Source: Acidimicrobiia bacterium
Lineage (GTDB): Bacteria; Actinomycetota; Acidimicrobiia; Spongiisociales; UBA5794
Assembly (NCBI GenBank): GCA_035458525.1
Contig: DATHZQ010000040.1
Span: 7,964 to 71,963, forward strand
DNA length: 64,000 nucleotides
Direction: 5' to 3'
The translations under genes and the position numbers were made by a program. This document shows positions 7,830-25,486 of this stretch, piece by piece. The notes beneath the pieces were generated by a model, which saw nothing but the letters and a program-made list of their open reading frames with translations, did no database searches and was not told the DNA's origin. The number at the start of each line of letters is the position of its first letter. Positions within the stretch are counted from its first letter, which is position 1.

Positions 7830-7841
7830 TTGTCTATACAG
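7830..7841. promoter_or_regulatory. Putative HutC/GntR (DasR/NagR-like) operator
   Basis: TTGTCTATACAG, 53 nt upstream of the 7894 start. Same core as the twin sites at 25457..25486. Confidence 0.5.
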
Positions 7842-7893
7842 GTTGCCACGGTGTCGATGACACTCCGGCTGGTCGGTGCGAAGGAAGGATCCG

Positions 7894-9107: not shown

Positions 9108-9797
9108 GTGCTCCCGATCGCCGATTGGGGCGATGGGATTGGCCGCAGGCTCTTCGAGGCGATCGCGGCCCGGCCCGCTCTCAGGCTGTGCCTGCCCACG
9201 GGCAGTACGCCCATGCCGGCGTATCGCTCATTCGCCCACCGGGGAGGGAGCTTGCGTGACGCGACCGTCTTCCTGCTCGACGAGTTCGGTTTGCCTCCCG
9301 GCCACCCGGCGCGCGGTGACTCGATGATTCGGCGCACCTTGCTGGATCATCTCGAGGGACCGCCGCAGCACATGCATGCCCTGGATCCGGCGGCATCAGA
9401 TCTTGTCGCCGAATGTCACCGCTACGAGGCCGCCGTCTTGGACGGTGGGCTCGACCTGACGCTGCTGGGGCTCGGCGGCAACGGGCATCTCGGGCTCAAC
9501 GAGCCGGGGTCGGAGCGTGCGACGCGGACTCGGCGGGTCGCGTTGGCGGCGGAGACGATCGAGCATGCCGAGGAGTACGGGTCGGGTGAGCGTCCGGCGT
9601 GGGGCCTCACGATGGGGATCGGGACGATCCTCGAGAGCCGGGAGGTCTGGCTACTGGTCACCGGCGCCCACAAAGCAGCAATCTTGCGCCGGGCCCTGTC
9701 GGGGCCGATCGGCGCCGAGGTGCCCGCGTCGTACCTGCGCACGCATCGGAATGCACTGGTCCTCGCCGACGAGGCGGCAGCCGTACAACTCGGCTGA
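9108..9797 (+). CDS. Glucosamine-6-phosphate deaminase / 6-phosphogluconolactonase family protein (NagB-like)
   Basis: LPTGSTP and LGLGGNGHLGLNEPGS motifs. GTG start 14 nt after the upstream stop. Confidence 0.8.
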   Translation: MLPIADWGDGIGRRLFEAIAARPALRLCLPTGSTPMPAYRSFAHRGGSLRDATVFLLDEFGLPPGHPARGDSMIRRTLLDHLEGPPQHMHALDPAASDLVAECHRYEAAVLDGGLDLTLLGLGGNGHLGLNEPGSERATRTRRVALAAETIEHAEEYGSGERPAWGLTMGIGTILESREVWLLVTGAHKAAILRRALSGPIGAEVPASYLRTHRNALVLADEAAAVQLG

Positions 9798-9800
9798 GCT

Positions 9801-10829
9801 TCACGAGGATTGGCGGGCCCGGCGGGCGCCTTCGACCATGTTGGCCAGCTTGTTCCGGCTGGCCCACCGCGCGGTCTGGGAAAGGCCACAATCCGGGGCC
9901 ACGGCGAGCCGGTCCGCCGGGACGTAGCGCAAGCACTGGGCGATGCGGGCGGCGACGTCATCTGCGGTCTCGATGTAGTAGCTCTTGACGTCGATGACGC
10001 CGACATTGACGTCCTTGGTCTCGGCGATCTCGCCGATCCGCTCCAACTCGGCGAACTCGCGACTGGCCATCTCGAGGTGGATCTCGTCGGCGGCCAGACC
10101 GAGGAAGGCCGGAAACATCGGTGCGTAGCGGCGCGGCGCCACCGCTCTCGCCTTGAAGTTTCCGAAGCAGAGGTGGGCGCCGAGGTAGCACCGGCCAACG
10201 ACAGGTTCGACGGTCCGGTTGTAGATATCGACGAGGCGATCCGGGTCCTCGCGATACGCGTAGCAACTCATCGAGGGCTCGTCGACGGTCACGACCTCGC
10301 AGCCCGCATCGACCAGGCGCACGAGTTCGTCCCGCACCAGAGGAACAAGTGCTTCGGTCACTGCGTAGCGATCGGGGTAGTCGGCATTGGGGAGCAGCCT
10401 CCCCGAAAGGGTGTAGGGACCCGGGATGGATGCCTTGAGGCGCGGTCCCTCGGGGGCGAGCGCAACCAGGCGGGCATACTCCTCGACCACGCCGAGCCCG
10501 CGTGGCGCACGCAGCTCGCCAACGATCTCGTGCTTGCCACGCTGGTCGTGGGCCGGAGGACCCCAGCGACGCACGGTGGACAGATCTGGTTCGATGCCGT
10601 CGAGAAACCCGTAGAAGGAGAGATTGAAGTCGAAGCGTGTCTGCTCGCCGTCGCTGATGACGTCGAGGCCGGCCCGAACCTGGTCCATGACGGCCGCGAT
10701 GGTTGCGTCGTCCTGCATCTCGGCGATGTCGGCCGGTCCGAATGCATCGAGGTCGGCGGAGGCGTGCTCGAGCCAGCCCGGAAACGGGTAGCTCCCGATG
10801 ACGGTGGTGACGATGGGGTCGTGCGGCAT
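9801..10829 (-). CDS. Cobalamin-independent methionine-synthase-like (MetE C-terminal domain family) protein
   Basis: 342 aa. N-terminus TTVIGSYPFPGWL and the C-terminal CGL...R region resemble the single-domain MetE-like family. Last gene of the minus-strand operon. Confidence 0.7.
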   Translation of the reverse strand: MPHDPIVTTVIGSYPFPGWLEHASADLDAFGPADIAEMQDDATIAAVMDQVRAGLDVISDGEQTRFDFNLSFYGFLDGIEPDLSTVRRWGPPAHDQRGKHEIVGELRAPRGLGVVEEYARLVALAPEGPRLKASIPGPYTLSGRLLPNADYPDRYAVTEALVPLVRDELVRLVDAGCEVVTVDEPSMSCYAYREDPDRLVDIYNRTVEPVVGRCYLGAHLCFGNFKARAVAPRRYAPMFPAFLGLAADEIHLEMASREFAELERIGEIAETKDVNVGVIDVKSYYIETADDVAARIAQCLRYVPADRLAVAPDCGLSQTARWASRNKLANMVEGARRARQSS

Positions 10830-10854
10830 GCGTTGCTCCTCTGTCAGTGCGGCC

Positions 10855-11859
10855 CTATTCGGACGAGGCTCGACCGCTCACCGATTCCACGTCAACCGTG
10901 AGGCGAGTTCTTCTCGTCTCGCCTGGCGGCAGGGTTGGCAGGGTGAGGGCGTTGCGTTCGAAGGCTCGGCCCCGTGTCCCGCAGTTCGCCGGTTCTATCC
11001 CGAGAACCGACATGCCGGGGTTGGGGTCGATCCACTGGTTGAGCCGGGGGAGCGCGGTGCGATCCCACGAGATCGTGAGGCGCAGGCCGACTTGCGTGTT
11101 CTCCAGGACGGCGCGGCCCACCGGTGCCTCTCCGAGGTCGTGCTCGAGTACGCGCTCCGAGCTTTCGGTGACGGGCGGAGGTTGTCGCCAGGTGTCGATC
11201 GCAGCTTCCGATGCAGGGTCGCGGGCTCGGGTTGCGTGGACGGGCATGTCGAGCGTGGCCGGTGGAGCCCACAGGGGAGCGCCGAAGTTGAAGTGGTAGA
11301 GCAGCGGCACGGCCGCTGCTTCGTCGCCGAGATTCTCGGTCGCGTCGGCGAGCTCGATCCGCCCGGATCCTGCGTGGACCACGATCGAGCGGCGATGGCG
11401 CAGCGGCCCCGGCTGTGCGGGGTCGGTCACGACGCCGGTCACCTCGACCTTCGCACCTTCTGGCGTCACCGTGCGCCTGGCGTCGACGTCCTGCGCCGCC
11501 AGGTGTGAGTAGGTGCCGTGAAGCCCGTGTCCCTCTGAAGGCATGCCGACATTGCGGAGCCCGGACGTGGTCATCAATCCGCCGATGAATGCCGAGCTCC
11601 ATCGCATCCCCTCGAGGTACTTCAGCGGCTTGGTTTCTCCGGTCGTCGATATCCAGGCCAAGGGGATGCCTTGGAACCATGCCTGACCCAGGTCGAGGCC
11701 GCGATCTGGATAGATGCGCACCGAAATGCCGTTACAGACGGCCACGTCGATCACCCGCATGCCGGCGCCGTTCCCGCGCGTGAGCTCGGCTTCGGAGATG
11801 GCGGCGACGGCGTCGAGATTGGCGAGCCGGCCCGACTGCAGCGCGTCGTGGATGTTCAT
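10855..11859 (-). CDS. Aldose-1-epimerase-like protein (DUF4432-type)
   Basis: ORF 10855..11976 trimmed to MNIHDALQSGRL. SEGHGLHGTYSH and the overall mutarotase-like pattern are my recollection of the DUF4432 family. Confidence 0.6.
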   Translation of the reverse strand: MNIHDALQSGRLANLDAVAAISEAELTRGNGAGMRVIDVAVCNGISVRIYPDRGLDLGQAWFQGIPLAWISTTGETKPLKYLEGMRWSSAFIGGLMTTSGLRNVGMPSEGHGLHGTYSHLAAQDVDARRTVTPEGAKVEVTGVVTDPAQPGPLRHRRSIVVHAGSGRIELADATENLGDEAAAVPLLYHFNFGAPLWAPPATLDMPVHATRARDPASEAAIDTWRQPPPVTESSERVLEHDLGEAPVGRAVLENTQVGLRLTISWDRTALPRLNQWIDPNPGMSVLGIEPANCGTRGRAFERNALTLPTLPPGETRRTRLTVDVESVSGRASSE

Positions 11860-11860
11860 G

Positions 11861-12178
11861 TCACACCGGCCGCCCATGCGGTGGGAAGGTGCGGGACGAC
11901 CCGGCGATCTCGGTTTCCAGCAGCGTGAGGTGCCACCGTCCAGAATCGGCCGGAACGAGGCGCCGCCGGTTGTCACCGATGAAGGAGACGTTGATCGGTG
12001 CCGCCAAGCCGCGCGCGATGCCCACGGCGTAGGCCTGGCCTAAGCCGCGCGCGATGCCCACGGCGTAGGCCCGGCCGTCCTCGCCACCGACAGAGAGGAC
12101 GTTGCTGCCGTGGTCGTGCGAAACACCCTCCGGGTGGTTGAGCCCATCGACGAGCGCCTCGACGCCTGTGACCTGCAT
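11861..12178 (-). pseudogene. 105-codon ORF: probable internally deleted beta-propeller (SMP-30/gluconolactonase/LRE-like) remnant
   Basis: Tail of ORF 11861..12850. Has a first-blade-like GLNHPEGVSHDHGSNVLSV and a last-blade-like APINVSFIGDNRRRLV with only ~40 aa between (full-length proteins are ~290 aa). The start overlaps the upstream stop (TGATG) and the stop lies 1 nt from the next start. Confidence 0.4.
12006..12071. repeat. 36-bp tandem duplication (2 copies, 30 nt identical)
   Basis: AAGCCGCGCGCGATGCCCACGGCGTAGGCC occurs at 12006 and 12042. It encodes AYAVGIARGL twice on the minus strand. Confidence 0.9.
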
Positions 12179-12981
12179 CAGTCGAGGGCGTGGCCGACGG
12201 TGCCGTTGATCACCAAGCCGCCGTCCACGACGATCTCTTGGCCGGTCAGGTAGCGGGAACCACGGGATGCGACGAAGACGACGACGTCGGCGATCTCGTC
12301 CTCTGCGCCGATGCGACCGAGAGGGATCCGGTGCTCGTAGGTGCGCCGTACCTCGGGGGTGTACGCCTTGGCGTTGAGCGGGGTATCGGTGGCGCCCGGC
12401 GAGACGGCGTTGACGGTGACGTTGTGCTCTGCGGCCTCGAGCGCCAGCGTCTTGGTGAGACCAACGATCCCGCCTTTGGCCGTGATGTAGGCGCCGAGGT
12501 TGGCAACAACGAGCACGTCCGCCGCCGAGGTGATGTTGATGATGCGGCCCCGCTGCTGCGGGTACATCGCCAGGGCGGCAGCACGGCAGCCGTAGAAGAA
12601 GCCGTGGAGGTTGGCGCCGAGGAGGCCGTGCCAGTCCTCGTCGCTCGTCTCGATGAGCGGCTTGACCATGAGCCGGGCAGCGTTGTTCACCCAGATGTCC
12701 ACGGAGCCCCACCGCTGCGTGGCCTCGGATGCCAGCCGTGCGGCAGTAGCCGGCTCCGCCGTGTCGCCCTGGAACACGATGGCCTCGCGCCCTGCGGCTT
12801 CGATCGCAGCGGTGACGGCAGCGGCGCCGTCGTGATCGGAGTAGTAGCACCCCGCCACGTTGGCGCCCGCCCGCGCCAGCGCGCCCGCGACGGCGCGGCC
12901 GATGCCGTTGGAGACTCCGGTGACGACGGCGTTGGGCCCCACCAGCGAGTTGTGGATGACGGTGGATTCAGGGCTGGTCAT
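12178..12981 (-). CDS. SDR family oxidoreductase
   Basis: 267 aa. TGVSNGIGRA cofactor motif; catalytic YxxxK region (YITAKGG). Confidence 0.9.
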   Translation of the reverse strand: MTSPESTVIHNSLVGPNAVVTGVSNGIGRAVAGALARAGANVAGCYYSDHDGAAAVTAAIEAAGREAIVFQGDTAEPATAARLASEATQRWGSVDIWVNNAARLMVKPLIETSDEDWHGLLGANLHGFFYGCRAAALAMYPQQRGRIINITSAADVLVVANLGAYITAKGGIVGLTKTLALEAAEHNVTVNAVSPGATDTPLNAKAYTPEVRRTYEHRIPLGRIGAEDEIADVVVFVASRGSRYLTGQEIVVDGGLVINGTVGHALD

Positions 12982-13012
12982 CTCGTAGAGCCTTTCGCTT
13001 GTCGCCGTCGAG

Positions 13013-14038
13013 TCAGTTCGCTCGCGGATCGAGCACGATCTTCATGCCCTCGCCGCGCCGGGTGGCGTCGAAGGCTCGTTCCCAGTCGGCCAGCGGGACG
13101 ACCTCGGAGACGAGCGGGTCGAGTCGAACCAGGCCTGCGTCGAGGAGGTGCATGGCCCGGCGCCACGAGCTCGGGGTGCTGGCGTTGCCGGACGTGAGCG
13201 TGATTTCGCCGTAGAGGATCACGTCCAGTGGGACCTCGATCGGTTTGCCGAAGATGCCGACTTGTAGGTAGCGCCCACCCTTGCGGACGGCGCCGAATGC
13301 CATCGTCGCCCCTCCCTGGTGGCCGGAGGCTTCGGCCACGACGTCGAAGGTCCCCACATCGTCCGCCCCGGACACCGTGACCGTGTGCAGGCCGAGGGAG
13401 GACGCCAGATCCAGGCGCGCTCGGTCCCTCGGCAGGCCGACGAGGGTCACGTCGCCTCCGGCCGCTCGCGCTGCCTGGGCGGTGAGGAGGCCCATCGTGC
13501 CGGGGCCGACGACGAGCACCCGGTCTCCCGCGTTGACCACGGCAGGGTCGAAGAGGCAGCGTGCCACGCACGCCAGCGGCTCGGCGAGGGCGCCGGCGTA
13601 TCTGCCGACGCCGCCCGGAAGACGCCACAGGTTCATCGCCGGGAGCGTGAGCCACCGGGCGAAGCCGCCGTCGACCCGAGAGCCGATCGATCGCCTGGCG
13701 TCACAGAGATTGGGTCGGCCGCTGCGGCAGAACGCACACCGCTCGCAGCACTCGTAGTACGTCTCGCAGGCAACCCTGGCGCCTTGCCAGCTGGGGTCGA
13801 CGCCCTCGCCGAGCAGCACCACCTCCCCGGTGACCTCGTGTCCCATGGTCACCGGAGGCTCGGAGGGAAACTCGTCCTCGGCGATGTGGAGATCGGTACC
13901 GCAGATGCCGGTCGCCAGAACCTCGATCGTCACCTCGCCGAATCCCGGTCGACGTACCGGTTGCGTCCGCATCCCCAGGTTCCCGGCACCCGGCGCCAGC
14001 TTGCCGACAGCGAGGGTGGTCTCCGGGAGGGACGTCAT
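13013..14038 (-). CDS. Zinc-dependent alcohol/polyol dehydrogenase (MDR family)
   Basis: C-terminal part of ORF 13013..15373, starting at MTSLPETT. GICGTDLH, GHEVTGEV, CERCAFCRSGRPNLC and GPGTMGLL motifs. The ATG overlaps the upstream stop (ATGA). Confidence 0.9.
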   Translation of the reverse strand: MTSLPETTLAVGKLAPGAGNLGMRTQPVRRPGFGEVTIEVLATGICGTDLHIAEDEFPSEPPVTMGHEVTGEVVLLGEGVDPSWQGARVACETYYECCERCAFCRSGRPNLCDARRSIGSRVDGGFARWLTLPAMNLWRLPGGVGRYAGALAEPLACVARCLFDPAVVNAGDRVLVVGPGTMGLLTAQAARAAGGDVTLVGLPRDRARLDLASSLGLHTVTVSGADDVGTFDVVAEASGHQGGATMAFGAVRKGGRYLQVGIFGKPIEVPLDVILYGEITLTSGNASTPSSWRRAMHLLDAGLVRLDPLVSEVVPLADWERAFDATRRGEGMKIVLDPRAN

Positions 14039-15000
14039 GCAGCGGGCTCCACGAAAGGAAAGAAGGCCGCCGGGTTGCCGGCAAGCATCCGTTCGATGGC
14101 GGCGTCGTCGGCGCCGCGTCGTTCCAGGAGCGGCAGGACTTCGACGGCGAGCGCGGCGAGGCCGGGGCTCCCCCCGAGCGAGGTCCACATCGATGGGCGC
14201 GCTCCGTCGGTGCCGAGCATCAGCCGCTCGGCGAGCCCCCGCTCGAGCATCGCACCGATCAGCTCCACCGTGGGGTTGTTCATGTCGAGCGGATGGCGCA
14301 GGGTCTGGTCGTACTCGAGATACGCGCCGCTTGCGGCCAGCTCGGCGTGATACCCGAGATCGTTCGCCTTGTCGGTATGGGACAGCACGATGCGGCCGGC
14401 GTCGACCCCCAACTCGGTGAGTGCGGCGACCTGCTCCAATCCCCCGTGCCCGCCTTCGCAGTGCGTGAGGATCGGCGCACCCGTCTTCAGGTGGGTCTCC
14501 GCCGCTGCGGCAAACACCCGGCGATCCCGATCGTCGAGCTGGGGTTGCAGGGTGCCGACCTTGATGAGGCCGGCGCGGTGCTCGCTGCGATCGATGATCG
14601 GGGCGCCGTAGTCGAATCGGTCGATGCCCTCCTCGATGTCGGCGATGAAGAGCCAAGCGAGGGTCGAAGGGTCGAGATCGCTCGTCCACGAGAACCCCGG
14701 ATACCAACGCTGCGTGTGCAGACCGGTCGTGGCGATCACGTGAACGCCGCTCCGCCGGCTGATGTCGGCGAGCCGCTCCGGGTGGCGGCCTGTGGCGCAC
14801 GGTAGGGCGTCGACCACCGTGGTCACTCCGGCGGCTGCGCACAACGCAAGCTCGGCGACCGCGGCATCGATGTCGTTGAGCACGATCTCGGCGAAGCGGT
14901 CCTCGACGAGCGGTGCGTCGATGACGAGATGCTCGTGGGCGTAGGTCCTGCCCAGGGACTCGGGCGGGACGTCCCCGAGCACGGTCCTGGCATTCTTCAT
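14035..15000 (-). CDS. Phosphotriesterase-family (PTE/PHP, lactonase-like) amidohydrolase
   Basis: ORF 14035..15141 trimmed to MKNARTVLG. LGRTYAHEHLVID metal motif; TIM-barrel amidohydrolase pattern. Confidence 0.8.
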   Translation of the reverse strand: MKNARTVLGDVPPESLGRTYAHEHLVIDAPLVEDRFAEIVLNDIDAAVAELALCAAAGVTTVVDALPCATGRHPERLADISRRSGVHVIATTGLHTQRWYPGFSWTSDLDPSTLAWLFIADIEEGIDRFDYGAPIIDRSEHRAGLIKVGTLQPQLDDRDRRVFAAAAETHLKTGAPILTHCEGGHGGLEQVAALTELGVDAGRIVLSHTDKANDLGYHAELAASGAYLEYDQTLRHPLDMNNPTVELIGAMLERGLAERLMLGTDGARPSMWTSLGGSPGLAALAVEVLPLLERRGADDAAIERMLAGNPAAFFPFVEPAA

Positions 15001-16433
15001 CCTGACTCCTCGATGGAGAGTACGGCCCCCTGCTTGCGGAGCCATGTGCGAGCATCGGCCGGCGACACGCTCCGAACTTCGCCGTCGGCCCGTGCGGCCA
15101 GTGCCGCCACCGTGCCGGCAGCATGCCCCATCGCCATACATTGCGCCATTGAGCGGACCGACGCTTGGGCATCGTGCTCGGCCGAGAAACAGCGGCCCGC
15201 AACGAGCACGTTGCGTCCGTCGCGGGGCACGAGCGTACGGAGTGGGATGCCGACGGCCGCGCCTTCCGGCAGGTACTCCCAGGTGGTGCCGGTGCCGGCG
15301 CCGCCGTGGTGATCCTCGATCGGGGCTCCGCAGAGCCCGATCTGGTCGTCGAACTGGCGGGCAGCCACAACATCCTCTCGGGTCAGCCGGTAGTCGCCCC
15401 AGACCCGCCGGGTCTCACGAAGACCGATCTGGGTCGACAGCGCCGCCAGCGATGCTCGCTCGTAACCCGGGATGCGGTCGACCAGGAATCGAACGTATTC
15501 GAGTGCCTGGCGACGGCCTTCCATCTCGGCGGAGGTGAGGACCTCGGGGTCGGTGGCGTTGCGGACCGGCTGTGCCGGTCCGTTGGCAGTTGCCTGCGGG
15601 AACTGCTGTGTGTGGGTGGGGTGTGCCGGTCCGTTGGCAGTTCCTTGCGGCGACTGCTGTGTGTGGATCGGCGTTGCGGCAACGGGTCGCAGCTGATCGA
15701 TCCGGGTCATCACCGTGGCGACCATTCCGTTGACCGGAGTGATGTGATCGCTGCCCTCCCGGCGGGGGAGGTCGTAGTCGCCGGACTCTGCGGCTTGTTC
15801 CATGGCCTCGTGGAACTGGGCTTTCGACATCTGGTCACGTCGATCGTGGTCGACGTTGACCATGCGAAACGTCGTCGTGAGCGTTTGGGCCGGCGTCACC
15901 GCTCCCGCTGCCTCGTAGCCGAAGCCGGCGTGATGGCAGACGTCGGCATCTCCCGACGCATCGATCACCACATCGGCGGCGATCTGTATGAGCCCGGCCT
16001 TGGTGGCCACGGTCAGGGTGGTGACTCGCCCGTCGACAGCGGTCGCATCTTGGACGAACGCATGGAGCAGCACCCTGGCGCCGGACTGGACGACCAGGTG
16101 CTCCCACACCACCTTCAGATGGTCTGCCAGATAGGTGATTCCCGTCCCTGCGCCATACGTGTTGGCCCGCTCCACGACCGGTCCGAGCCGCCGGAGTTCC
16201 GCGACCACGTCGTCGCCGATGCCGCCGACGACCTTCTGCGCACGTTGGCCGGGTGTGTAGAAGCCGTAGAACGTGTCCAGCACCGCGGTCGAGTTGCCGC
16301 CCAGGAACGGCAGCTTCTCGAGCAGCAAGACATCTGCCCCGGTGCGCGCCGCGGCGATGGCCGCCGCCGACCCGGCGGCGCCGGAGCCGACGACCACTAC
16401 CTCGGCTCTGGAGGGCCCAACCGGTGTCGCCAT
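14997..16433 (-). CDS. FAD-dependent oxidoreductase
   Basis: ORF 14997..16955 trimmed to MATPVGPS. Dinucleotide motif VVVVGSGAAGSAAAIAAARTGADVLLLEK. Contains an internal Q/P-rich duplicated insert. Confidence 0.8.
   Translation of the reverse strand: MATPVGPSRAEVVVVGSGAAGSAAAIAAARTGADVLLLEKLPFLGGNSTAVLDTFYGFYTPGQRAQKVVGGIGDDVVAELRRLGPVVERANTYGAGTGITYLADHLKVVWEHLVVQSGARVLLHAFVQDATAVDGRVTTLTVATKAGLIQIAADVVIDASGDADVCHHAGFGYEAAGAVTPAQTLTTTFRMVNVDHDRRDQMSKAQFHEAMEQAAESGDYDLPRREGSDHITPVNGMVATVMTRIDQLRPVAATPIHTQQSPQGTANGPAHPTHTQQFPQATANGPAQPVRNATDPEVLTSAEMEGRRQALEYVRFLVDRIPGYERASLAALSTQIGLRETRRVWGDYRLTREDVVAARQFDDQIGLCGAPIEDHHGGAGTGTTWEYLPEGAAVGIPLRTLVPRDGRNVLVAGRCFSAEHDAQASVRSMAQCMAMGHAAGTVAALAARADGEVRSVSPADARTWLRKQGAVLSIEESG
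15571..15672. repeat. 51-bp in-frame tandem duplication (2 copies) inside the FAD oxidoreductase gene
   Basis: TGTGCCGGTCCGTTGGCAGTT... recurs at 15571 and 15622. It encodes HTQQ(S/F)PQ(G/A)TANGPA(H/Q)P twice. Confidence 0.9.
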
Positions 16434-16447
16434 TGCGTTCGGCCGGC

Positions 16448-17362
16448 TCAGTGGCAGTACGGGGCGAGTACGTCGCGGGCGAGGAGGAAGCCGCGCTTCA
16501 CCAGCTCGTCTGTTGCTTCGAAGTCGCGGTCCTCGTGCTCGATGATGATCGGACCGTCGTAGCCGACTCGATAGAGCGACCGAAACACGATGGCCCAGTC
16601 GACATCGCCGAGACCGGGGAGCCGTGGGACCTGCCAGCCGATGCCGGACGACAGTGAGCCGTTGTCGTAGAGGCCTCCGTAGTCGATCATCACGTCCTTC
16701 GCCTGGAAGTGATAGAACCGCTCGCCGAACTCCAAGATGGCGCTCTCGATGTCGATCATCAGCCAGATGAGGTGCGACGGGTCGAAGTTGAGGCCGATCG
16801 TCTCCCCGAACTCCTCGAACATGCGGCGCCAGATCTTCGGGTTGTACGCAACGTTGTGACCGGACGGCCACTCGTCCTTCGAGAAGATCATCGGGCAGTT
16901 CTCGATCGCCATCTTCACGCCGTTCTCCTCGGCGCACGAGATGATCTCCGGCCACACCCGGGTCGCCTTCTCCCAGTTCTCGTCCTGGGTGAAGGCACGA
17001 TCGGCGCCGACGAACGTGTTGACCACGCCGACCCCCATCTTGCCTGCGGCCACGATCACCTTCTTGAGGTGGTCGATGACCATGCGTGCGTGCTCTCCAT
17101 CGGGGTGCAGCGGATTCGGGTAGTACCCGAGTCCCGAGATCTCGAGCCCGCGTTCGTTCATCCCGGCAACGATCTCCGCGGCTCGCGCATCGGAGAGGCC
17201 ATCGACATCGATGTGGCTCGTTCCGGCGTAGCGGCGGGTATCGCCGCTCGAGGCGGGCCAGCAGGCGATCTCGATAGTGGTGAATCCGGCCCCGGCGGTC
17301 CAGTCCGCGACCTCATCGAGTGGCGTCTCCGGGAATGGCGCAGTCAGCAATCCGAGCTTCAT
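16448..17362 (-). CDS. Sugar phosphate isomerase/epimerase (xylose-isomerase-like TIM barrel)
   Basis: ORF 16448..17566 trimmed to MKLGLLTAPFPE. Typical AP-endonuclease-2/IolE-like barrel pattern (IIEHED near the C-terminus). Confidence 0.8.
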   Translation of the reverse strand: MKLGLLTAPFPETPLDEVADWTAGAGFTTIEIACWPASSGDTRRYAGTSHIDVDGLSDARAAEIVAGMNERGLEISGLGYYPNPLHPDGEHARMVIDHLKKVIVAAGKMGVGVVNTFVGADRAFTQDENWEKATRVWPEIISCAEENGVKMAIENCPMIFSKDEWPSGHNVAYNPKIWRRMFEEFGETIGLNFDPSHLIWLMIDIESAILEFGERFYHFQAKDVMIDYGGLYDNGSLSSGIGWQVPRLPGLGDVDWAIVFRSLYRVGYDGPIIIEHEDRDFEATDELVKRGFLLARDVLAPYCH

Positions 17363-17375
17363 GCCGCTCTCCTCC

Positions 17376-18530
17376 TCATCTCTCGACTCGTACCCAGCGT
17401 TGTTCTTCCGAGCTCCGCGCCACCGCCTCAGTGACGAGCAGCGCATCGTGGCCGTCCGCGAATGTGGGGTAGGTTGGCGCCGCCGACGGTCCACCCCGAG
17501 CCACGTCGGCGTAGACCTGGCCGAAGAGAGCCCGGAACGTGTCCGGATAGCCTTCGACGTGCCCACCGGGATAGCCGATCAGTCGCGCCGCTTCGGGTGC
17601 TGCCAGCGACGGGTCTCGCTGCAACACCTCGTTGGCCCGGCCCCGGTGGCCGATCCACAGGTGGTCGGGAGTCTCCGAGTACCACGACACCGCGGATGAC
17701 GTGCCGTCGACTTCGATCGACACCGAGTTCTTTCGCCCGGCCGAAACCTGGGAGATGGTTGCGATGCCCCTTGCGCCGTTGTCGAACCGCAGCAGGATGC
17801 CGGCAGCGTCGTCGGACGACATGGTCTCCTCGACGAGTTCGGCGTTCTCGTCAACGGTCGCGAAGGTCTCCACCGGACCAGGCGGGTGGGTCCGGGTGGT
17901 CACGAAGGTGTGCAGGTCGGCCATCACCTCGACCACGTTTGCCCCGGTGATGTAGCGGGCGAGGTCGAGCCAGTGCGAGCCGATGTCGGCGACGGCCCGC
18001 AAGCCTCCTGCCTTGTCCGGCTCGAGCCGCCAGTTCCAGTCCGTCTCGAGCAGGAGCCAGTCCTGCAAGTAGCTGCCTGAGATCAGCCGGGGTGCGCCGA
18101 TCTCGCCGGAGTCGACCAACGCTCTGGCCTGGTGACAGTTGGGGTAGAACCGGATGTTGAAGCACACGGCGTTGATGAGACCCGACGCCTCGGCGCGGGC
18201 GACCAGGTCGGCCGTGTCCTCCGAGGTCAACGCAAGCGGCTTCTCGCAAACGACGTGCTTACCGGCATCGAGCACGATCCGCACCTGATCGGCATGTGCA
18301 TGGTTGGGGCTGGCGATGTGGATGATGTCGATGTCGGGATCGGCGGCGAGGGCCTCGACGCTGTCGTACACCTTCGGGAGGTTTGCGGCTTCGGCCTTGG
18401 CTGCGGCGCGCTCGGGTGTCGAACCGACCACGCCGACGACGTCCACGCCGAGCCGGCGCAACGCCTCCACGTGGGCAACGCCGATGAAACCGACGCCGAC
18501 GACGCCCGCCTTGATCTCGCTCAGACGCAT
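17376..18530 (-). CDS. Gfo/Idh/MocA family oxidoreductase
   Basis: ORF 17376..18632 trimmed to MRLSEIKAGVVGVGFIGVAH (Rossmann N-terminus). VCEKPLA motif. Confidence 0.85.
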   Translation of the reverse strand: MRLSEIKAGVVGVGFIGVAHVEALRRLGVDVVGVVGSTPERAAAKAEAANLPKVYDSVEALAADPDIDIIHIASPNHAHADQVRIVLDAGKHVVCEKPLALTSEDTADLVARAEASGLINAVCFNIRFYPNCHQARALVDSGEIGAPRLISGSYLQDWLLLETDWNWRLEPDKAGGLRAVADIGSHWLDLARYITGANVVEVMADLHTFVTTRTHPPGPVETFATVDENAELVEETMSSDDAAGILLRFDNGARGIATISQVSAGRKNSVSIEVDGTSSAVSWYSETPDHLWIGHRGRANEVLQRDPSLAAPEAARLIGYPGGHVEGYPDTFRALFGQVYADVARGGPSAAPTYPTFADGHDALLVTEAVARSSEEQRWVRVER

Positions 18531-18543
18531 GGTGCTTCCCTTC

Positions 18544-19548
18544 TCATTGAGCCGCTGCGATGCGTGTGTACAGCCACGACAGGCCGATGACGATGCTGCC
18601 GTACAGCATTTGCTGGATTGCCTGGCCGACACCGAGGAACGTCAACATGGATTGCAGGACGCCGAGGATCAGGGCGCCGAGGATCGTGCCGCTGTAGGTG
18701 CCGGTGCCGCCGAAGATCGACGTGCCGCCGATCACCGCCGCTGCCACGGATGGCAGCAAGAAGACGTTGGCGAGTTGGAGATCCACCGCGCCGACCCGGC
18801 CGCCGAGCAGGAGTCCGGCGATGGCGGCGAAGAGGCCGGCGATCATGTACACGACAATGAGGACTTGCCACGAGCGCGTGCCGGAAAGCCTGGTCGCAAT
18901 GGCGTTGTCGCCCAACGCGTAGAGGTTTCGCCCGAACCCCGAGTAGCGCAGCATGTAGATCACCAGCACCGACAGCACCGCCCAGACCACCACCGCCCAT
19001 GGGACGGTCCGTCCCCAGAACGAGCCGCCGCCGAGGGTCCGGATGAAGTCGCCCATTCGGGTGGATCCAGAGAAGATCGTCTGCGCCCAGGAGGTGAAGA
19101 GACCGAGCAGGATGGCGGACATCGCCAGCGTCATGATCAGCGGGTTGACGCGGAAGACACCGACACCGATTCCGTTGGCGGCACCCGACAGCACGCCGAC
19201 GAGCAGCCCGCCGCCAATGGCGATGACGGCGCCCTCGGGGGATTGGTTGGCGGCGACATAAGCGGCGCCGGTGGCGATCATCGCCGCAGAGAGGTCGATC
19301 CCTCCCGTGAGCATGAGGATCGTCTGCGCCGCCGCCAGCACGCCGATCGGAACGGCGAAGAGCACGGAGTTGCGGACGCCGGTCACGCTCAGGTAGTTCG
19401 GTTGGATGGCGCCGGTGACGAGGATCAGCGTGACGAGCACGGCGACGAGCACCAAGTGTGGATGGGTTGCCAGATACCGCCCGAACCGGCGCAGCCGAGG
19501 CGGGGCGCCGTCATCGGTGGAGGGGGCCCGAGTCGTCCTGGTGCTCAT
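18544..19548 (-). CDS. Sugar ABC transporter permease (RbsC-like)
   Basis: C-terminal part of ORF 18544..20622, starting at MSTRTTRAPS. Multi-span hydrophobic protein. ATGA overlap with the upstream permease. Confidence 0.85.
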   Translation of the reverse strand: MSTRTTRAPSTDDGAPPRLRRFGRYLATHPHLVLVAVLVTLILVTGAIQPNYLSVTGVRNSVLFAVPIGVLAAAQTILMLTGGIDLSAAMIATGAAYVAANQSPEGAVIAIGGGLLVGVLSGAANGIGVGVFRVNPLIMTLAMSAILLGLFTSWAQTIFSGSTRMGDFIRTLGGGSFWGRTVPWAVVVWAVLSVLVIYMLRYSGFGRNLYALGDNAIATRLSGTRSWQVLIVVYMIAGLFAAIAGLLLGGRVGAVDLQLANVFLLPSVAAAVIGGTSIFGGTGTYSGTILGALILGVLQSMLTFLGVGQAIQQMLYGSIVIGLSWLYTRIAAAQ

Positions 19549-20558
19549 GAGCGCCGTTGCCTCCGCCACTCGAGCAGGCCCGTCACCATCATCACGATGA
19601 CGATGAGGAGCCCTTGGATGATCTGGGCGCGATTCGGGTCGACGCCCATGGCGCTGAGGATCGGATTGAGGAAGAACAGGATCAGCCCGGCCGGCACGAC
19701 GGCGATCACCGAGCCGATGCCTCCGGTCAGCGCGACTCCGCCGAGCACGATCGCGGCGACGGAGTTCAGCGTGAGGTTGCCGCCGAAAGTGGTTGCATTG
19801 CCGCGGCCGGCGATTGCCGTGGTCGCCAAGCCGGCCAACGCCGCAAACGATCCGCCGACGGCGTACGAGAGGATCTTGACTCGGGCGGCGCGGATTCCGG
19901 ACAAGTAGGCCGCGGTCGTGTCGCTGCCCACCGCGTAGAGCGAAAGGCCGCGTCGCGTCCTGCCCAACCACCACGCCACGGCGAGGATGGCGATGCTGAT
20001 CATTGCGATCGCGGGCCACGGGTTGGCGCCGATGCCGGTGTTCGACCCGGTGAACAGGTACCGGTATCCCTCGCTGGTGCCCCCACCCGGGTTCGGTAGC
20101 ACCCACAGCGCCATGCCCTGGAAGACATAGAGGGAGCCGAGGGTCACGACGATGTCCGGCACCTGCGACACGGTGATGATCCAGCCGACGATCGAGTTGA
20201 GCACCGCCGCGGCCAACAGGATCCCTATGCCGATGAGGATGGTGGCCGCAAACGGCTGCCCTTCCATCAGCCGTGCTGCCGTGACGCTGGTGAGCACCAG
20301 CATGGAGCCCACGCCGAGGTCGATTCCTCCGGCGATCACGATCACGGCCTGCGCCGCGGCGAGGAAGACGAACGGCGACCCGTTGTTGACGATCGAGGCG
20401 ACCTGGAACGAGCCGAAGCTCGGAATCAGCGTCGAGTAGTAGGCGATGAGCGCAAGGAACAGGATCCAGATCCCGGTGGTCCAGCCGTGGCGGCGGACCC
20501 AGCGGCGCCACGGTCGGCGGGATCCGGCGGCGATGGCCGAGGGCGTGGTTGCCGTCAT
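19545..20558 (-). CDS. Sugar ABC transporter permease (RbsC-like)
   Basis: ORF 19545..20672 trimmed to MTATTPSAIAAG. Multi-span. The start overlaps the ATPase stop. Confidence 0.85.
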   Translation of the reverse strand: MTATTPSAIAAGSRRPWRRWVRRHGWTTGIWILFLALIAYYSTLIPSFGSFQVASIVNNGSPFVFLAAAQAVIVIAGGIDLGVGSMLVLTSVTAARLMEGQPFAATILIGIGILLAAAVLNSIVGWIITVSQVPDIVVTLGSLYVFQGMALWVLPNPGGGTSEGYRYLFTGSNTGIGANPWPAIAMISIAILAVAWWLGRTRRGLSLYAVGSDTTAAYLSGIRAARVKILSYAVGGSFAALAGLATTAIAGRGNATTFGGNLTLNSVAAIVLGGVALTGGIGSVIAVVPAGLILFFLNPILSAMGVDPNRAQIIQGLLIVIVMMVTGLLEWRRQRRS

Positions 20559-22054
20559 GCCGGCGCCTCCTCGAGCCCGTGCGCCGCGGAGAGGAGCATC
20601 TCCTCGGTGGCCGTCCGCGCATCCTGCTCGCTGACGACTCGGCCCGAATACATCACGAGCACTCGGTCGCACACGAGGGGGATCTCACGGAGCTCGCTGG
20701 TGTAGAGCAGCACGGCGGCGCCGTCGGCGGCGAGCTCGCGCAACAGGTCGTAGATCTGGGCCTTGGTTTGGATATCGATTCCGCGGGTGGGGTCGAAGCA
20801 CAGCAGGGTGTCGAAGCCGGCAGCCAGCCAGCGCCCGATCGTCACCTTCTGCTGATTGCCACCCGAGAGTCGCTGCACCTGCTCGGCGGCCCGGATGTCG
20901 ATGTCGAGCCGTTCGACGGCCCGCGACACCCGCTCCTCCTCGTCGCGGGCGAGGGTGAACCAGCGGCTGATGCGGTTGTAGAGCGGCGTCGACAAGTTCT
21001 CGCGCACGGAACGCTGTGGGAGCAGTGCGTGTTGCCGTTCCGCCGGCACGAGGACCACGCCTTGGCGAATCGCATCGAAAGGGGAGCGGGCGGTGAGCGG
21101 TTTCCCGTTGACGACGAGCTCGCCACTCGTGGGCCGGTGGTCGCCGGACAGCATCTGGAACAGCTCGTCCTGACCCTGGCCCTCGAGTGCGGTCAGTCCG
21201 AGGATCTCGCCGGCCCGCAATGCGAAAGAGACGCCGTTCACCTTGTCGCGAAGCCTGAGGTCCCGGGCTTCGAGCACGATCGGCCGTTCGCCGTTGCCGA
21301 TGGTGCGCCCGGTGCGGGCGGTGGCATCCTCGCCCGTTGCGGCCTCTGCCAGCTCCTCGCCGAGCATCGCCCTGACGAGCTCGGTCTCGGCGACGCCCTC
21401 GAGGTCGAGCTCCGCGACGTTGGTGCCGTTGCGCAGGATGGTGGCCCGGTCACTCATCTCGAGTACCTCGCCGAGACGGTGCGTGATGAACAAGACCGAG
21501 CGGCCTCGTTCCTTCCATTCGCGCATCAGGTCGAAGACGAAGGTGGTCTGGTCGGTGGTCAGCGCGGCGGTGATCTCGTCGAGCATGAGCAGCTGTGGAT
21601 CTTTGGCGAGGGCTCGGGCCAGGTCCAGCAGGCGCAGCATTGCCAGTGGGACGTCGCGTACCTGGAGATCGAGGTCGATCGAATCGAGCTGCATCCGCTC
21701 CAGCCAGGGCATCACGGCGCCGACGTCGAGATTGCTGATGCGCAAGTTCTGCTCGAGCGAGAGGTCGCGGATCAGCGCCGGATCCTGAAACACGGTGGCG
21801 ATGCCTGCGGCGACCGAGTCGGCGGGCTTGCGAAGCCTCGCCGGTGCCCCGTTGACGGCGATCGTCCCGGCGTCCGCACCGAAGACTGCGGAGAGGATCT
21901 TGACGAGGGTGCTCTTCCCGGCGCCGTTGGCGCCGAGGAGCGCGTGAATCTCGCCGGGAGCCACGGTGAGGTCGGCAGACCGCAGCGCCACCACGGGGCC
22001 ATAGCGCTTGGCGATGCCTCGCGCCGCCAGCAGCGCCTGCGTCGATTCGCTCAC
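20555..22054 (-). CDS. Sugar ABC transporter ATP-binding protein (tandem ABC domains)
   Basis: 499 aa. Walker A GANGAGKST, signature LSGGNQQK, second degenerate cassette. Confidence 0.93.
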   Translation of the reverse strand: MSESTQALLAARGIAKRYGPVVALRSADLTVAPGEIHALLGANGAGKSTLVKILSAVFGADAGTIAVNGAPARLRKPADSVAAGIATVFQDPALIRDLSLEQNLRISNLDVGAVMPWLERMQLDSIDLDLQVRDVPLAMLRLLDLARALAKDPQLLMLDEITAALTTDQTTFVFDLMREWKERGRSVLFITHRLGEVLEMSDRATILRNGTNVAELDLEGVAETELVRAMLGEELAEAATGEDATARTGRTIGNGERPIVLEARDLRLRDKVNGVSFALRAGEILGLTALEGQGQDELFQMLSGDHRPTSGELVVNGKPLTARSPFDAIRQGVVLVPAERQHALLPQRSVRENLSTPLYNRISRWFTLARDEEERVSRAVERLDIDIRAAEQVQRLSGGNQQKVTIGRWLAAGFDTLLCFDPTRGIDIQTKAQIYDLLRELAADGAAVLLYTSELREIPLVCDRVLVMYSGRVVSEQDARTATEEMLLSAAHGLEEAPA

Positions 22055-22125
22055 ATCGTGATCCTCAAGTCGGGCGAAAGTGTGCCGGGCCCCGACGGGG
22101 GCCCGGCACGACTCTCAGGTTGGTG

Positions 22126-23226
22126 TCACTCGCCGGGTCCCTTGCAGGCGACGACCATGTCGGCGGTGTAGCTGACGTACGGCTCGATCTCCATGTAGGA
22201 AGACCATCCTGCGGTCAGCCCGTCGACGTACACGGCCTCCAGGTCGCCTTGCTCGCTGAGCACCACGGGCGTCAGCAGCGTCTGCTGCGAGACGTCCTTG
22301 CCTTCGAGAATGTCGAGGGCGACTGCCGCACCGACGCCGCCGACCGATGGCGGGTTGCTGACTGCGGCTCCGGTGAGACCTTCGCCTCCGAGTTCGATCA
22401 GCTGTGCAACGAACTCGTTGTTGTCCGCACCCACGACGGGCACGTAGTCGACACCGGCGACCGAGAACTGCTCGACCACCGTGTAGTCGATGCCAGACGT
22501 CCAAATACCGTCCAGCTCCTGAGTGGTGAGGATCTCGAGCGCTTGCTGCGCACCGACGCTGGGATCCCAGCCGGTCCAGTCCTCGTATACGACCTCGATC
22601 CCCGGATAGTCCACCAGTGCGGCCTGGAAGCCGTCGTCGCGATCGGTGTCGGCCGGGTGGCCTTGGAGCCCACGCATGTAGGCGACCTTGCCTTCGCCGC
22701 CGAGCGACTCGAACAGCCAGCGGGCGCCGACCTCGCCGTACTGGACCTGATTGTTGGACACGAAATACGCCGACTCCGCGGTGACGGGGGCGTCGATGGC
22801 GATCACAGGGATGCCTTGTGCTGCTGCTTCTTCGATCACGTCGTCGAGCGCCGAGCGGTCGGCCGGGTTCACCAGGATCGCATCGACGCCCTGCGAGATG
22901 AGTGTCTGGATCTGGGCGACCTGCCCGGCGACGTCCGTATTGGCGTTCTGCAACACGACCTCGTCCACGTTGCCGCGGGCCAACGCCTCGGCCTTGATGG
23001 CGCAGATCATCTGCTCACGCCAGGCGTTGCCGACGAGCGTGTTGGACACACCGAGCGTGAACGTCTCATCGGCCATCGCTTCGGTGGTTTCGGTCGTGTC
23101 GTCGCCGCCCGCAGCGGCGGTCGTGTCGGCGTCGGCGTCATCGTCATCCCCGCCGCATGCGGCGACGACGAGCGCAAGCGCCATGAACAAAGCTGCGAGA
23201 CGCAGCCATGCGTTCTTACGCGTCAT
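22126..23226 (-). CDS. Sugar ABC transporter substrate-binding lipoprotein (type I periplasmic binding protein)
   Basis: Signal/lipobox [13 protein letters not shown]. RbsB-like core: [32 protein letters not shown]. Confidence 0.88.
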
Positions 23227-25427: not shown

Positions 25428-25456
25428 GGTCTTCCCCTCCAAGCGAACGACATTGA

Positions 25457-25486
25457 CTTGTCTATACAAGCAAATGTCTAGACAAG
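25457..25486. promoter_or_regulatory. Twin HutC/GntR (DasR/NagR-like) operators in the divergent SIS/GntR promoter region
   Basis: CTTGTCTATACAAG (25457..25470) and ATGTCTAGACAAG, which contains the perfect palindrome TGTCTAGACA (25475..25484). Confidence 0.65.

Follow-up and report, generated by a model that had tools for sequence, protein, structure and literature searches.

The window analysed here is a stretch of 64,000 nucleotides from contig DATHZQ010000040.1 of an Acidimicrobiia bacterium, and this report deals with a sugar-utilisation gene cluster within it. Thirteen open reading frames (ORFs) on the minus strand, running from 23226 to 9801 and each with a single terminal stop, encode in this order a substrate-binding protein (SBP), a double ATPase and two permeases of an ATP-binding cassette (ABC) importer, a Gfo/Idh/MocA oxidoreductase (Gfo), a xylose-isomerase-like TIM barrel, a flavoprotein of family PF12831, a hydrolase of the phosphotriesterase (PTE) family, a zinc-dependent dehydrogenase (Zn-ADH), a short-chain dehydrogenase/reductase (SDR), a product of 105 aa, a DUF4432 protein and a MetE-like protein (Table 1). 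The 12 junctions, counted from the SBP gene, measure 71, -4, -4, 13, 13, 14, -4, -4, 31, -1, 1 and 25 nt. Flanking these genes are, on one side, those for a second Gfo/Idh/MocA oxidoreductase (Gfo2) and a NagB-like protein and, on the other side, those for a ROK-family regulator (ROKr), a SIS_2 phosphosugar enzyme, a GntR-family regulator, a ROK kinase and a second SDR (SDR2).

Table 1. Genes and sequence elements of the cluster. Fractions give the number of related loci in which the family was found.
Feature	Position	Strand	Evidence and remarks
Gfo2, second Gfo/Idh/MocA oxidoreductase, outside the 13-gene interval	7876..9093	+	Pfam; 51/82 loci
NagB-like sugar-phosphate deaminase/isomerase	9108..9797	+	Glucosamine_iso; 34/82 loci
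MetE-like core homocysteine S-alkyltransferase-type protein, folate domain absent, 342 aa	9801..10829	-	Meth_synt_2
DUF4432 protein, aldose-1-epimerase-like fold	10855..11859	-	PF14486, E 2e-67; PDB 3ty1; 7/82 loci
SMP-30/gluconolactonase (SGL) remnant, 105 aa	11861..12178	-	no Pfam match; in-frame internal deletion
SDR of the tail	12178..12981	-	adh_short_C2; 13/82 loci, each time with Zn-ADH
Zn-dependent medium-chain dehydrogenase (Zn-ADH)	13013..14038	-	ADH_N/ADH_zinc_N; under all equivalog cut-offs; 16/82 loci
PTE-family amidohydrolase	14035..15000	-	PF02126; PDB 3msr/3ovg, E 2.5e-39
FAD-dependent oxidoreductase (FAD_oxidored), flavoprotein	14997..16433	-	PF12831, E 3e-100
Xylose-isomerase-like TIM barrel	16448..17362	-	AP_endonuc_2 PF01261; 54/82 loci
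Gfo/Idh/MocA oxidoreductase (Gfo), levoglucosan-dehydrogenase-like	17376..18530	-	GFO_IDH_MocA (Pfam); 50/82 loci
Two CUT2 ABC permeases	18544-19548 + 19545-20558	-	BPD_transp_2 each; 4-nt overlaps
Fused double ABC ATPase	20555..22054	-	ABC_tran x2; closest to AraG, XylG, AlsA, under their cut-offs
Intercistronic stem-loop, perfect 12-bp GC stem, 4-nt loop	22082..22109	-	in the 71-nt SBP/ATPase gap
CUT2 substrate-binding lipoprotein (SBP)	22126..23226	-	Peripla_BP_4; N-terminal lipobox LVVAAC; PDB 4pe6, E 1.7e-34
ROK-family transcriptional regulator (ROKr)	23329..24528	-	ROK and helix-turn-helix; 102 nt upstream of the SBP gene
SIS_2 phosphosugar enzyme, UPF0309/NagS family	24645..25430	-	PF13580; 41/82 loci
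GntR/HutC-family regulator with UTRA domain	25527..26243	+	Pfam; PDB 2wv0/4u0v E 4e-29, DasR E 1e-21
ROK sugar kinase	26240..27145	+	ROK; 4-nt overlap with GntR; under all equivalog cut-offs
SDR2, second SDR	27146..27946	-	adh_short_C2; 27/82 flavoprotein-anchored, 25/43 MetE-anchored loci
Two predicted operators TGTCTATACA + TGTCTAGACA	25459..25484	.	divergent SIS_2/GntR intergenic region; position conserved in related loci
Predicted GntR/HutC-type operator TGTCTATACA	7831..7840	.	36 nt upstream of Gfo2; same position in 19 related loci

The window contains approximately 66% G+C and its raw ORF lists are crowded; gene calls relied on third-position GC and on the start codons implied by a previous, sequence-only reading of the same DNA. 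The 13 minus-strand ORFs of that reading, their ends and their junctions were reproduced exactly, and the tight coupling and the gene content were as described there. Third-position GC agrees with the 13 chosen frames, and a GGAGG-like ribosome-binding site is located 5' of most of the 13 starts. Folds were assigned by Pfam, membership of a pathway by the equivalog cut-offs of NCBIfam and relatives by sequence search of the PDB (phmmer). Pfam confirmed every fold name proposed before apart from that of the 105-aa ORF. For this ORF, alignment to the intact gene of a related locus (L002) bore out the earlier view of a beta-propeller remnant and identified it as a deletion derivative of an SGL gene.

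A search with the flavoprotein returned 7,231 homologues at E <= 1e-20, the best 120 of which are 65-96% identical to it. Anchored on flavoprotein homologues, 82 distinct loci were collected from Acidimicrobiia, Chloroflexota/Limnocylindria, Planotetraspora and one Propionibacteriaceae metagenome-assembled genome, and 23 protein families were mapped onto them. Because many contigs end within the locus, all counts among these 82 loci are lower bounds. The whole gene order is repeated in L001 with 100% protein identity and in L002 with 66-92%, the deletion remnant alone showing only 39%; parts of the order recur in dozens of further genomes. The arrangement is thus not due to chance. The PTE gene directly follows the flavoprotein gene in 76 of the 82 loci, in Acidimicrobiia, Chloroflexota, Planotetraspora and Propionibacteriaceae. 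ABC genes were found in about 40 loci, the ROK regulator in 33, GntR in 25, and the ROK kinase and NagA in 13 each. Aldolases are present as well, namely 2-keto-3-deoxy-6-phosphogluconate (KDPG) aldolase in nine loci and DeoC in nine; representatives of NagA pass TIGR00221 and those of DeoC their equivalog cut-off. Judged by these counts, the predicted 13-gene operon is composed of a conserved ABC-Gfo-TIM block, a near-invariant flavoprotein-PTE pair and a progressively rarer tail. The most conserved set comprises flavoprotein and PTE, SIS_2, Gfo2, SDR2 and the ROK kinase, often accompanied by NagB-like, NagA and an aldolase (KDPG or DeoC). The Gfo-TIM block can be dispensed with, as in L005, L019 and L039, where flavoprotein, PTE and SIS_2 are retained.

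Cultured versions of the system were found by tblastn against plasmids. Plasmid pDAETH-1 of Deinococcus aetherius encodes DUF4432, here the first gene of the operon, a CUT1 ABC system, an FGGY kinase, SDR2, flavoprotein, PTE, the aldolase Eda and SIS_2; pPP2 of Persicobacter psychrovividus encodes GntR, SIS_2, SDR2, flavoprotein, ROK, a creatininase-family amidase and Eda. A minimal set of kinase, SIS_2, SDR2, flavoprotein, hydrolase and KDPG aldolase can be recognized from the gene content in four phyla. SDR2 homologues are located directly upstream of the flavoprotein gene in Chloroflexota loci and are partners of flavoprotein, SIS_2 or MetE-like genes in other lineages. Sequence identity between lineages amounts to 62-86% for the flavoprotein and Gfo2 across Acidimicrobiia and Chloroflexota (70-86% for Gfo2 homologues in related loci) and to 72-86% for the MetE-like protein across lineages including Thermoleophilia. 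Such values appear unusually high for peripheral sugar catabolism, and strong constraint or recent lateral spread would both fit.

The closest solved relatives of the GntR protein are NagR (YvoA) and DasR. The palindrome TGTCTA[T/G]ACA, which we take to resemble the DasR/NagR box, has three matches in the window, two between SIS_2 and GntR and one before Gfo2. In a slightly relaxed form, the motif gave 66 sites in the 82 loci (1.25 Mb) compared with 0.63 in Markov simulations (maximum 3). All but one of these (65/66) are positioned a short distance upstream of genes of the regulon, namely SIS_2 (19), Gfo2 (19), GntR (13), the flavoprotein (6) and, in addition, Gfo and ROKr. The six sites in front of the flavoprotein gene belong to loci with a detached flavoprotein-PTE pair. 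The locus combines a GntR helix-turn-helix and UTRA regulator with a palindromic predicted operator before its targets, the features of a GntR regulon of the HutC/NagR type. Since the operator distribution is common to them, three transcription units form one regulon, and these are predicted to be Gfo2-NagB, SIS_2(-ROKr-SBP...MetE) and GntR-ROK kinase. The order SIS_2, ROKr, SBP was found in 33 of the 82 loci; the products are called as 399 aa (ROKr, L001) and 301 aa (ROK kinase, L001/L002).

The sequence-only reading had taken the 13 genes as the unit, but synteny and operator place partners that are more conserved than the tail outside this interval, on both sides of it. As SIS_2, ROKr, GntR, the ROK kinase, SDR2, Gfo2 and the NagB-like gene lie within the operator-defined regulon, the 13 genes are not the unit. 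The system is a regulator-controlled sugar-utilisation regulon of approximately 20 genes, of which the 13 are the largest part. What survives of the earlier interpretation is the uncharacterised pathway, upheld by the scores given below; its boundaries and its choice of central genes had to be given up on the grounds of synteny and operator. We give a roughly even chance to the prediction that the 13 genes make up the main transcription unit of the regulon and that a GntR repressor of the NagR/DasR kind, together with a ROK regulator, controls this regulon.

An accidental mosaic, in which unrelated small operons were packed head-to-tail without joint function, would account for the variation of the tail genes among genomes, for the presence of a deletion remnant and for the position of the island between the rpoC and fusA regions. 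It is very improbable, given that the operator is common to three transcription units, that the same families occur in different orders in four phyla and that translational coupling spans the module borders (TIM-flavoprotein, 14 nt; PTE-Zn-ADH, -4 nt).

The regulon also carries an amino-sugar signature that the sequence-only reading does not mention, made up of the regulator resembling NagR/DasR, a deaminase of the NagB type and, in relatives, NagA. The NagB-like protein scores 147.9 on the nagB model TIGR00502 and so misses its cut-off of 236.9. Asp72, His143, Glu148 and Lys208 of Escherichia coli NagB are conserved in it and Asp141 is replaced by Asn; D58, H127 and E132, equivalent to Asp72, His143 and Glu148, which we take to be catalytic in the E. 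coli enzyme, are conserved also in 30 homologues. SIS_2 passes NF002805, the model of the UPF0309/PRK02947 subfamily (268.7 vs 135), as the only product of the window among those scored to reach a family-level cut-off. Its match in the PDB is 9eol, NagS of Streptomyces coelicolor (E 1e-30, 110 bits). NagS (SCO4393) is a MurQ-related dehydratase of N-acetylglucosamine-6-phosphate (GlcNAc-6P) in Streptomyces, which acts with NagA/NagB under the control of DasR and binds 6-phosphogluconate tightly (PMC12680351).

The tight binding of 6-phosphogluconate by NagS can be taken in favour of a neutral rare hexose as the substrate. It would be degraded by an Entner-Doudoroff-like route of non-orthologous enzymes, the amino-sugar genes being lineage-specific neighbours. 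The kinase would yield hexose-6-phosphate, SDR2 or the flavoprotein would oxidize C1, PTE, or elsewhere a metallo-beta-lactamase (MBL)-fold protein or SGL, would act as phospho-lactonase, SIS_2 would be a phospho-aldonate dehydratase and Eda would cleave the product. The Deinococcus and Persicobacter operons, with kinase, SDR2, flavoprotein, hydrolase, SIS and Eda but neither NagA nor NagB, agree with such a route, and the alternation of three unrelated hydrolase folds (PTE, MBL and SGL) in the cassettes is as would be expected for a lactonase step. However, the lineage of the window possesses a NagB-type deaminase with its catalytic residues and a NagR/DasR-like regulator, NagA is present in 13 relatives, and Persicobacter carries a creatininase-family amidase in place of a lactonase. 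Moreover, a neutral hexose would leave the flavoprotein beside SDR2, and the MetE-like protein, without a role. We therefore regard this route as unlikely.

A Peripla_BP_4 binding protein, BPD_transp_2 permeases and a single fused double ATPase are encoded by one operon, as is characteristic of CUT2 sugar ABC importers. Comparison of the SBP with NCBIfam importers of known specificity (ribose, xylose, allose, galactofuranose, rhizopine and autoinducer-2) gave no equivalog match; the best score, 68 bits against a cut-off of 510, was obtained for YtfQ, all others being lower. A strong hairpin is found at the SBP/ATPase gap in about 24 of 26 loci, with the structure kept and the sequence differing, as should be the case for an RNA structure under selection. 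By analogy with other ABC operons, the role of the hairpin would be to shield or attenuate the transcript, leading to an excess of the SBP.

The pair of Gfo/Idh/MocA oxidoreductase and TIM barrel on which the sequence-only reading laid weight is present. Gfo reaches 176.3 on the levoglucosan dehydrogenase model NF052479 (cut-off 650), and its closest relatives in the PDB are levoglucosan dehydrogenase 6a3f (E 7.5e-42) and uncharacterised relatives of this enzyme. The closest PDB entries of Gfo2 are 6nor and 6jw6, presumably aminoglycoside sugar 3''-dehydrogenases, followed by 6a3f. Both Gfo proteins obtain approximately 123 bits on IolG (122.9 vs cut-off 355), and the TIM barrel scores 32.9 on IolE (cut-off 290).

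The PF12831 flavoprotein is the signature enzyme of the system. A sequence search of the PDB found no full-length relative, the match being confined to the first 60 or so residues, which form the FAD-binding motif. A model was calculated with AlphaFold2 from an alignment of 23 sequences (pLDDT 68.6, pTM 0.74). Foldseek comparison of this model with the PDB returned just generic two-domain flavoproteins at TM 0.3-0.49, among them geranylgeranyl reductase, aromatic hydroxylases and halogenases, and gave nothing on function. Residues approximately 254-289 (window positions approximately 15567-15674) form a 36-aa insertion of two imperfect 17-aa repeats (PxHTQQxPQxTANGPAx), modelled with very low confidence; all other aligned homologues lack it, and a 96%-identical protein (P0001) has three copies.

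The partner of the flavoprotein, PTE, is closest to phospho-sugar lactonases. It belongs to the Pfam family PTE; on the curated phospho-furanose lactonase model NF045706 it scores 151.8 against a cut-off of 630, and on the E. coli Php model PRK09875 it scores 136.2 against 486. In one locus (L088, 4293-5963) the TIM-barrel gene is directly followed by that of PTE without a PF12831 gene, and a 556-aa protein is encoded between DUF4432 and MetE. This protein has a precomputed Pfam label, Beta_methylindole_red_C, for which our own hmmscan gave no match, and it may be a replacement flavoenzyme.

On the L-threonine dehydrogenase model, a score of 176 was obtained against a cut-off of 380. For the variable tail, an assignment of Zn-ADH and SDR as the pair IdnD/IdnO (L-idonate) or LgnH/LgnI (L-gluconate) is not supported by the scores (L-idonate 5-dehydrogenase, 105 vs 469; gluconate 5-dehydrogenase, 167 vs 279); what they have in common with these systems is only the logic of Zn-ADH, SDR and lactonase. 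In the 105-aa ORF, residues 1-40 of the 282-aa SGL protein, which is encoded intact at the same position in L002 (4.2-Mb genome), are joined to its residues 234-276. Despite the deletion, the frame is kept and so is the coupling to the following gene. A tandem duplication of 36 nt (two copies, 97% match) at 12006-12076 lies within the remnant beside the deletion junction. The PDB neighbour of DUF4432 is a hypothetical aldose epimerase.

The MetE-like protein had been noted before as a methyltransferase-type fold; the neighbourhoods of its own family show it to be more than a marginal member of the system. A search at E <= 1e-30 gave at least 8,000 candidates. The gene is present in just three of the 82 flavoprotein-anchored loci, and a second set, of 43 metagenome contigs each 8 kb or longer, was anchored on proteins 72-86% identical to it. 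There, SIS_2 lies beside the MetE-like gene in 31 of the 43 contigs, and SDR2 and a ROK kinase recur as partners in 25 and 21, respectively. Most typically the genes run SDR2, ROK, SIS_2, MetE, and an MBL-fold hydrolase often comes next; L140 and L169 show the alternative ROK, SIS_2, flavoprotein, MetE...PTE. The MetE-like protein is thus tied most tightly to the SIS_2/kinase/SDR cassette, and in view of its family neighbourhoods we rejected a stray housekeeping methionine synthase at the operon end. An MBL-fold hydrolase gene (Lactamase_B_2/B_3) lies directly after the MetE-like gene in 16 metagenome loci without PTE (L098-L165; for example L109, 2950-3855) and may take over the hydrolase step by non-orthologous replacement. 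The operator motif is all but missing from the foreign MetE-anchored loci (770 kb), with 2 sites, of which one belongs to a close relative; the pair of regulator and operator is therefore lineage-specific, unlike the enzyme set.

E. coli MetE binds zinc through H641, C643, E665 and C726 and homocysteine through S433, E484 and D599 (PMC7857596). In an alignment of E. coli MetE with the protein from the window and 13 homologues, all seven residues are kept in the former (S13, E62, D183, H219, C221, E253 and C314) and invariant in the 14 sequences. On the best methionine-synthase model, PRK04326, the protein scores 191.6 against 406, and it remains under all NCBIfam methionine-synthase cut-offs. 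The core methionine synthases MesA-MesD are similar in that they comprise approximately 340 aa, consist of the MetE catalytic domain alone and keep the zinc and homocysteine residues (PMC7857596). The closest PDB entry is indeed MesD (3rpd), yet with just 95 bits. In contrast to MesA-MesD, the MetE-like gene is linked to SIS_2, SDR, ROK kinase and MBL-fold hydrolase; MesX (DUF1852) was found in none of the neighbourhoods read, and no corrinoid protein near the MetE-like gene. Most probably, the protein would transfer or remove an alkyl group (methyl), with homocysteine and an intermediate of the pathway as the two partners. A bolder proposal is a fifth family of folate-independent methionine-synthase-type enzymes, with a phosphosugar intermediate, the product of the co-encoded ROK kinase, NagS-like SIS_2, SDR and PF12831 flavoprotein, as alkyl donor or acceptor; we consider it quite unlikely. 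If true, the breakdown of methylated or thio-substituted sugars would be coupled directly to homocysteine/methionine metabolism, and first functions would be at hand for PF12831, DUF4432 and non-Streptomyces NagS-like proteins. As far as can be judged from gene neighbourhoods, the tight and widespread linkage of a MetE-type enzyme with complete homocysteine and zinc sites to a phosphosugar cassette is the most unexpected part of the system.

The intact homocysteine/zinc site also bears on an explanation in which the substrate is O-methylated, whether a sugar or a cyclitol (a methyl-hexose, or a compound like pinitol or rhizopine). The Gfo enzymes and the TIM barrel would then act as inositol-type dehydrogenases and inosose dehydratase, and the MetE-like protein would move the methyl group onto homocysteine. 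The IolG scores of both Gfo proteins and the weak IolE match of the TIM barrel fit in here, and cyclitols are common ligands of CUT2 binding proteins. Three loci (L103, L122 and L157) group Zn-ADH, TIM, Gfo, DUF4432, GntR, SGL, SDR and MetE without flavoprotein or ABC genes. On the other hand, the iol scores are far under the cut-offs, and IolB, IolC, IolD and IolJ are absent; ROK kinase, SIS enzyme, NagA/NagB and KDPG/DeoC aldolases indicate aldose phosphates rather than cyclitols, and methyl ethers are poor methyl donors unless activated first. This explanation is decidedly improbable.

At both ends of the block, genes converge, the NagB-like and MetE-like genes (9797/9801) with a 3-nt spacer and the ROK kinase and SDR2 genes (27145/27146) with a 0-nt spacer, so that there is no space for intergenic terminators. 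The island is flanked by the end of rpoC (24-1943) and by fusA and the S10 ribosomal-protein operon (29223-34475); it is an accessory catabolic block lying within the conserved rpoBC-str-S10 neighbourhood. Between rpoC and Gfo2 (2016-7849) lie genes for an MBL-fold protein, a molybdopterin oxidoreductase, a GNAT acetyltransferase and a penicillin-amidase-family protein, as well as a 207-aa ORF without Pfam match. In L001, amidase, GNAT and Peptidase_M50-like genes again adjoin Gfo2.

From the gene content, we propose that the regulon (approximately 7831-27946) serves the uptake and phosphorylative-oxidative breakdown of a probably amino-substituted hexose to a KDPG-type product, a proposal whose chances we see as evenly balanced. 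The lipoprotein-anchored CUT2 importer would bring in a sugar the size of a monosaccharide, which probably carries an amino or other substituent. By analogy with other routes that use a Gfo and a TIM-barrel enzyme, Gfo, TIM barrel and Gfo2 might then act via a keto intermediate, by oxidation, isomerization or elimination and subsequent reduction. Phosphorylation by the ROK kinase would follow, after which the NagS/MurQ-like SIS_2 would eliminate or dehydrate the phosphosugar, and SDR2 and the PF12831 flavoprotein would oxidize it. PTE would open a phospho-lactone, or an amide, a step carried out elsewhere by MBL, SGL or creatininase-type enzymes; the alternation of these four would represent non-orthologous replacement of one hydrolytic step. 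The NagB-like enzyme would deaminate or isomerize at the C2 amine, giving a 2-keto-3-deoxy-6-phospho-aldonate (KDPG type) or a 2-deoxy-sugar phosphate to be cut by an aldolase encoded elsewhere in the genome. In an optional side branch, Zn-ADH, SDR, lactonase and DUF4432 would epimerize an aldonate or polyol via a keto intermediate, the lactonase having been lost here by deletion. A more specific version would start from the enamide product of NagS, with deacetylation and imine hydrolysis to 3-deoxy-hexosulose-6-phosphate, oxidation at C1 to the lactone and formation of KDPG after PTE; we rate it well below the general statement.

Several observations weigh against this proposal. We infer the order of the steps, the roles of both Gfo proteins and that of the flavoprotein, whose model is of moderate quality and resembles generic folds only. 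The SBP reaches no equivalog and its closest PDB relatives are diverse, so that the substrate is not read from it, and the PTE and NagB-like proteins are both under curated cut-offs. NagA and the aldolases are absent from the 64-kb window. As the Deinococcus and Persicobacter versions do without NagA and NagB, the amino-sugar link may be lineage-specific. A scan for sigma-70 promoters and intrinsic terminators (7500-27400) gave no promoter and fewer terminator-like sites than shuffled sequences; it is uninformative on co-transcription and speaks neither for nor against a single transcript. Finally, identity among true NagS proteins is at least 58.7% and their genes neighbour dmdR1, and homologues of approximately 30% identity are inactive on GlcNAc-6P in vitro (PMC12680351); the true substrate of SIS_2 should therefore differ.

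The system is abundant and strongly conserved (65-85% identity) across Acidimicrobiia, Chloroflexota and Thermoleophilia, lineages that dominate in soils and sediments and have barely been cultured. Literature searches on PF12831, DUF4432, UPF0309 and PTE lactonases yielded nothing relevant, and in the libraries and literature searched we found no experimental function for PF12831 flavoproteins, DUF4432, non-Streptomyces NagS-like SIS_2 proteins or the MetE-like family. Identification of the substrate would add a carbohydrate route, probably for an amino sugar, to models of carbon and nitrogen cycling, would reveal the purpose of NagS-type chemistry outside a toxic side reaction and might expose a connection, new so far, of methionine metabolism with the breakdown of sugars. 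The system is experimentally accessible in three cultured carriers, namely Deinococcus aetherius ST0316 (pDAETH-1, DAETH_RS18445-18500), Persicobacter psychrovividus NBRC 101262 (pPP2, AABK40_RS17555-17585) and Planotetraspora kaengkrachanensis NBRC 104272.

In comparison with known pathways, the locus is predicted to be a gene system for sugar catabolism under regulation, and it agrees with none of those described in substrate or chemistry; it is built largely from families for which we found no assigned function. The sequence-only reading had stated that the other components of the iol, lgd and dgp routes are missing, and by Pfam and NCBIfam scores this holds for iol, lgd, dgp/car and frl/php alike. 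Because of this absence, and because no product reaches a curated equivalog cut-off for iol, lgd, dgp or frl/php, the enzymes do not map onto one characterised pathway and the designation "uncharacterised" stands. Membership of the iol, lgd, dgp/car or frl/php-yhf pathways, suggested by the similarity of Gfo to levoglucosan dehydrogenase, by the parallel of Gfo, TIM and Gfo2 to LgdA/LgdB/LgdC and by the likeness of PTE to Php, is thus largely refuted by the scores and has hardly any probability left; moreover, PF12831 flavoproteins, NagS-like SIS_2 proteins and MetE-like enzymes are foreign to all of these pathways. The levoglucosan pathway (LgdA/LgdB1/LgdB2/LgdC) likewise has a Gfo, a TIM barrel and a second Gfo beside a sugar ABC importer; lgd has two LgdB-type TIM barrels and an LgdC-type reductase, and Pfam shows one TIM barrel and Gfo2 here. 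Other 3-keto-sugar routes with a Gfo-TIM pair are IolG/IolE, DgpA/DgpBC and BT2158-2159, and all curated scores are far under their cut-offs. IolB, IolC, IolD, IolJ and IolA were found neither among the cluster genes (7876-28156) nor among the flanking genes scanned. The match to DgpA of the C-glycoside system DgpA/DgpBC (CarA/BC) is weak (E 1e-16 to 1e-19), and the junction map shows no ORF for a DgpC-type small subunit beside the TIM-barrel gene. As opposed to the fructoselysine systems frl/php-yhf, the kinase is of the ROK and not the PfkB type and the SIS protein belongs to SIS_2/UPF0309 and is not GlmS-like; by Pfam, no FrlB- or FrlD-type genes occur among the cluster genes.

The PTE lactonases of Mycoplasma (MS53_0025), Listeria (Lmo2620) and E. 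coli (Php) belong to the same Pfam family and are the best NCBIfam or PDB matches of PTE. To our knowledge, their systems lack a PF12831 flavoprotein, the invariant partner of PTE here. A further point of comparison is DgaE/DgaF, which we take to be an ammonia-lyase route for D-glucosaminate-6-phosphate. A step set similar to those of the Entner-Doudoroff pathway and of oxidative amino-sugar routes to KDPG (DgaE/DgaF; the GlcNAc1A pathway, PMC9537276) is plausible, with kinase, C1 oxidation, lactone hydrolysis, C2/C3 elimination and KDPG aldolase as the shared steps. Eda-type aldolases are found in nine related loci and in both plasmid-borne cultured carriers, and none in the window. Unlike in these routes, homologues of Zwf, Pgl, Edd, DgaE and OngB/OngC are absent, and SDR or PF12831, PTE and SIS_2 are present instead. 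The NagS route, finally, shares with the regulon a SIS_2/UPF0309 enzyme, a DasR/NagR-like GntR regulator with a dre-like palindrome, a NagB-type enzyme and, in relatives, NagA. The match to NagS itself is distant and the neighbour of SIS_2 is GntR rather than dmdR1, so that SIS_2 falls outside true NagS. In contrast to NagS, SIS_2 is embedded here among flavoprotein, PTE, SDR, Gfo enzymes, MetE-like protein and ABC importer, a setting which suggests a productive catabolic route and not a toxic side reaction.

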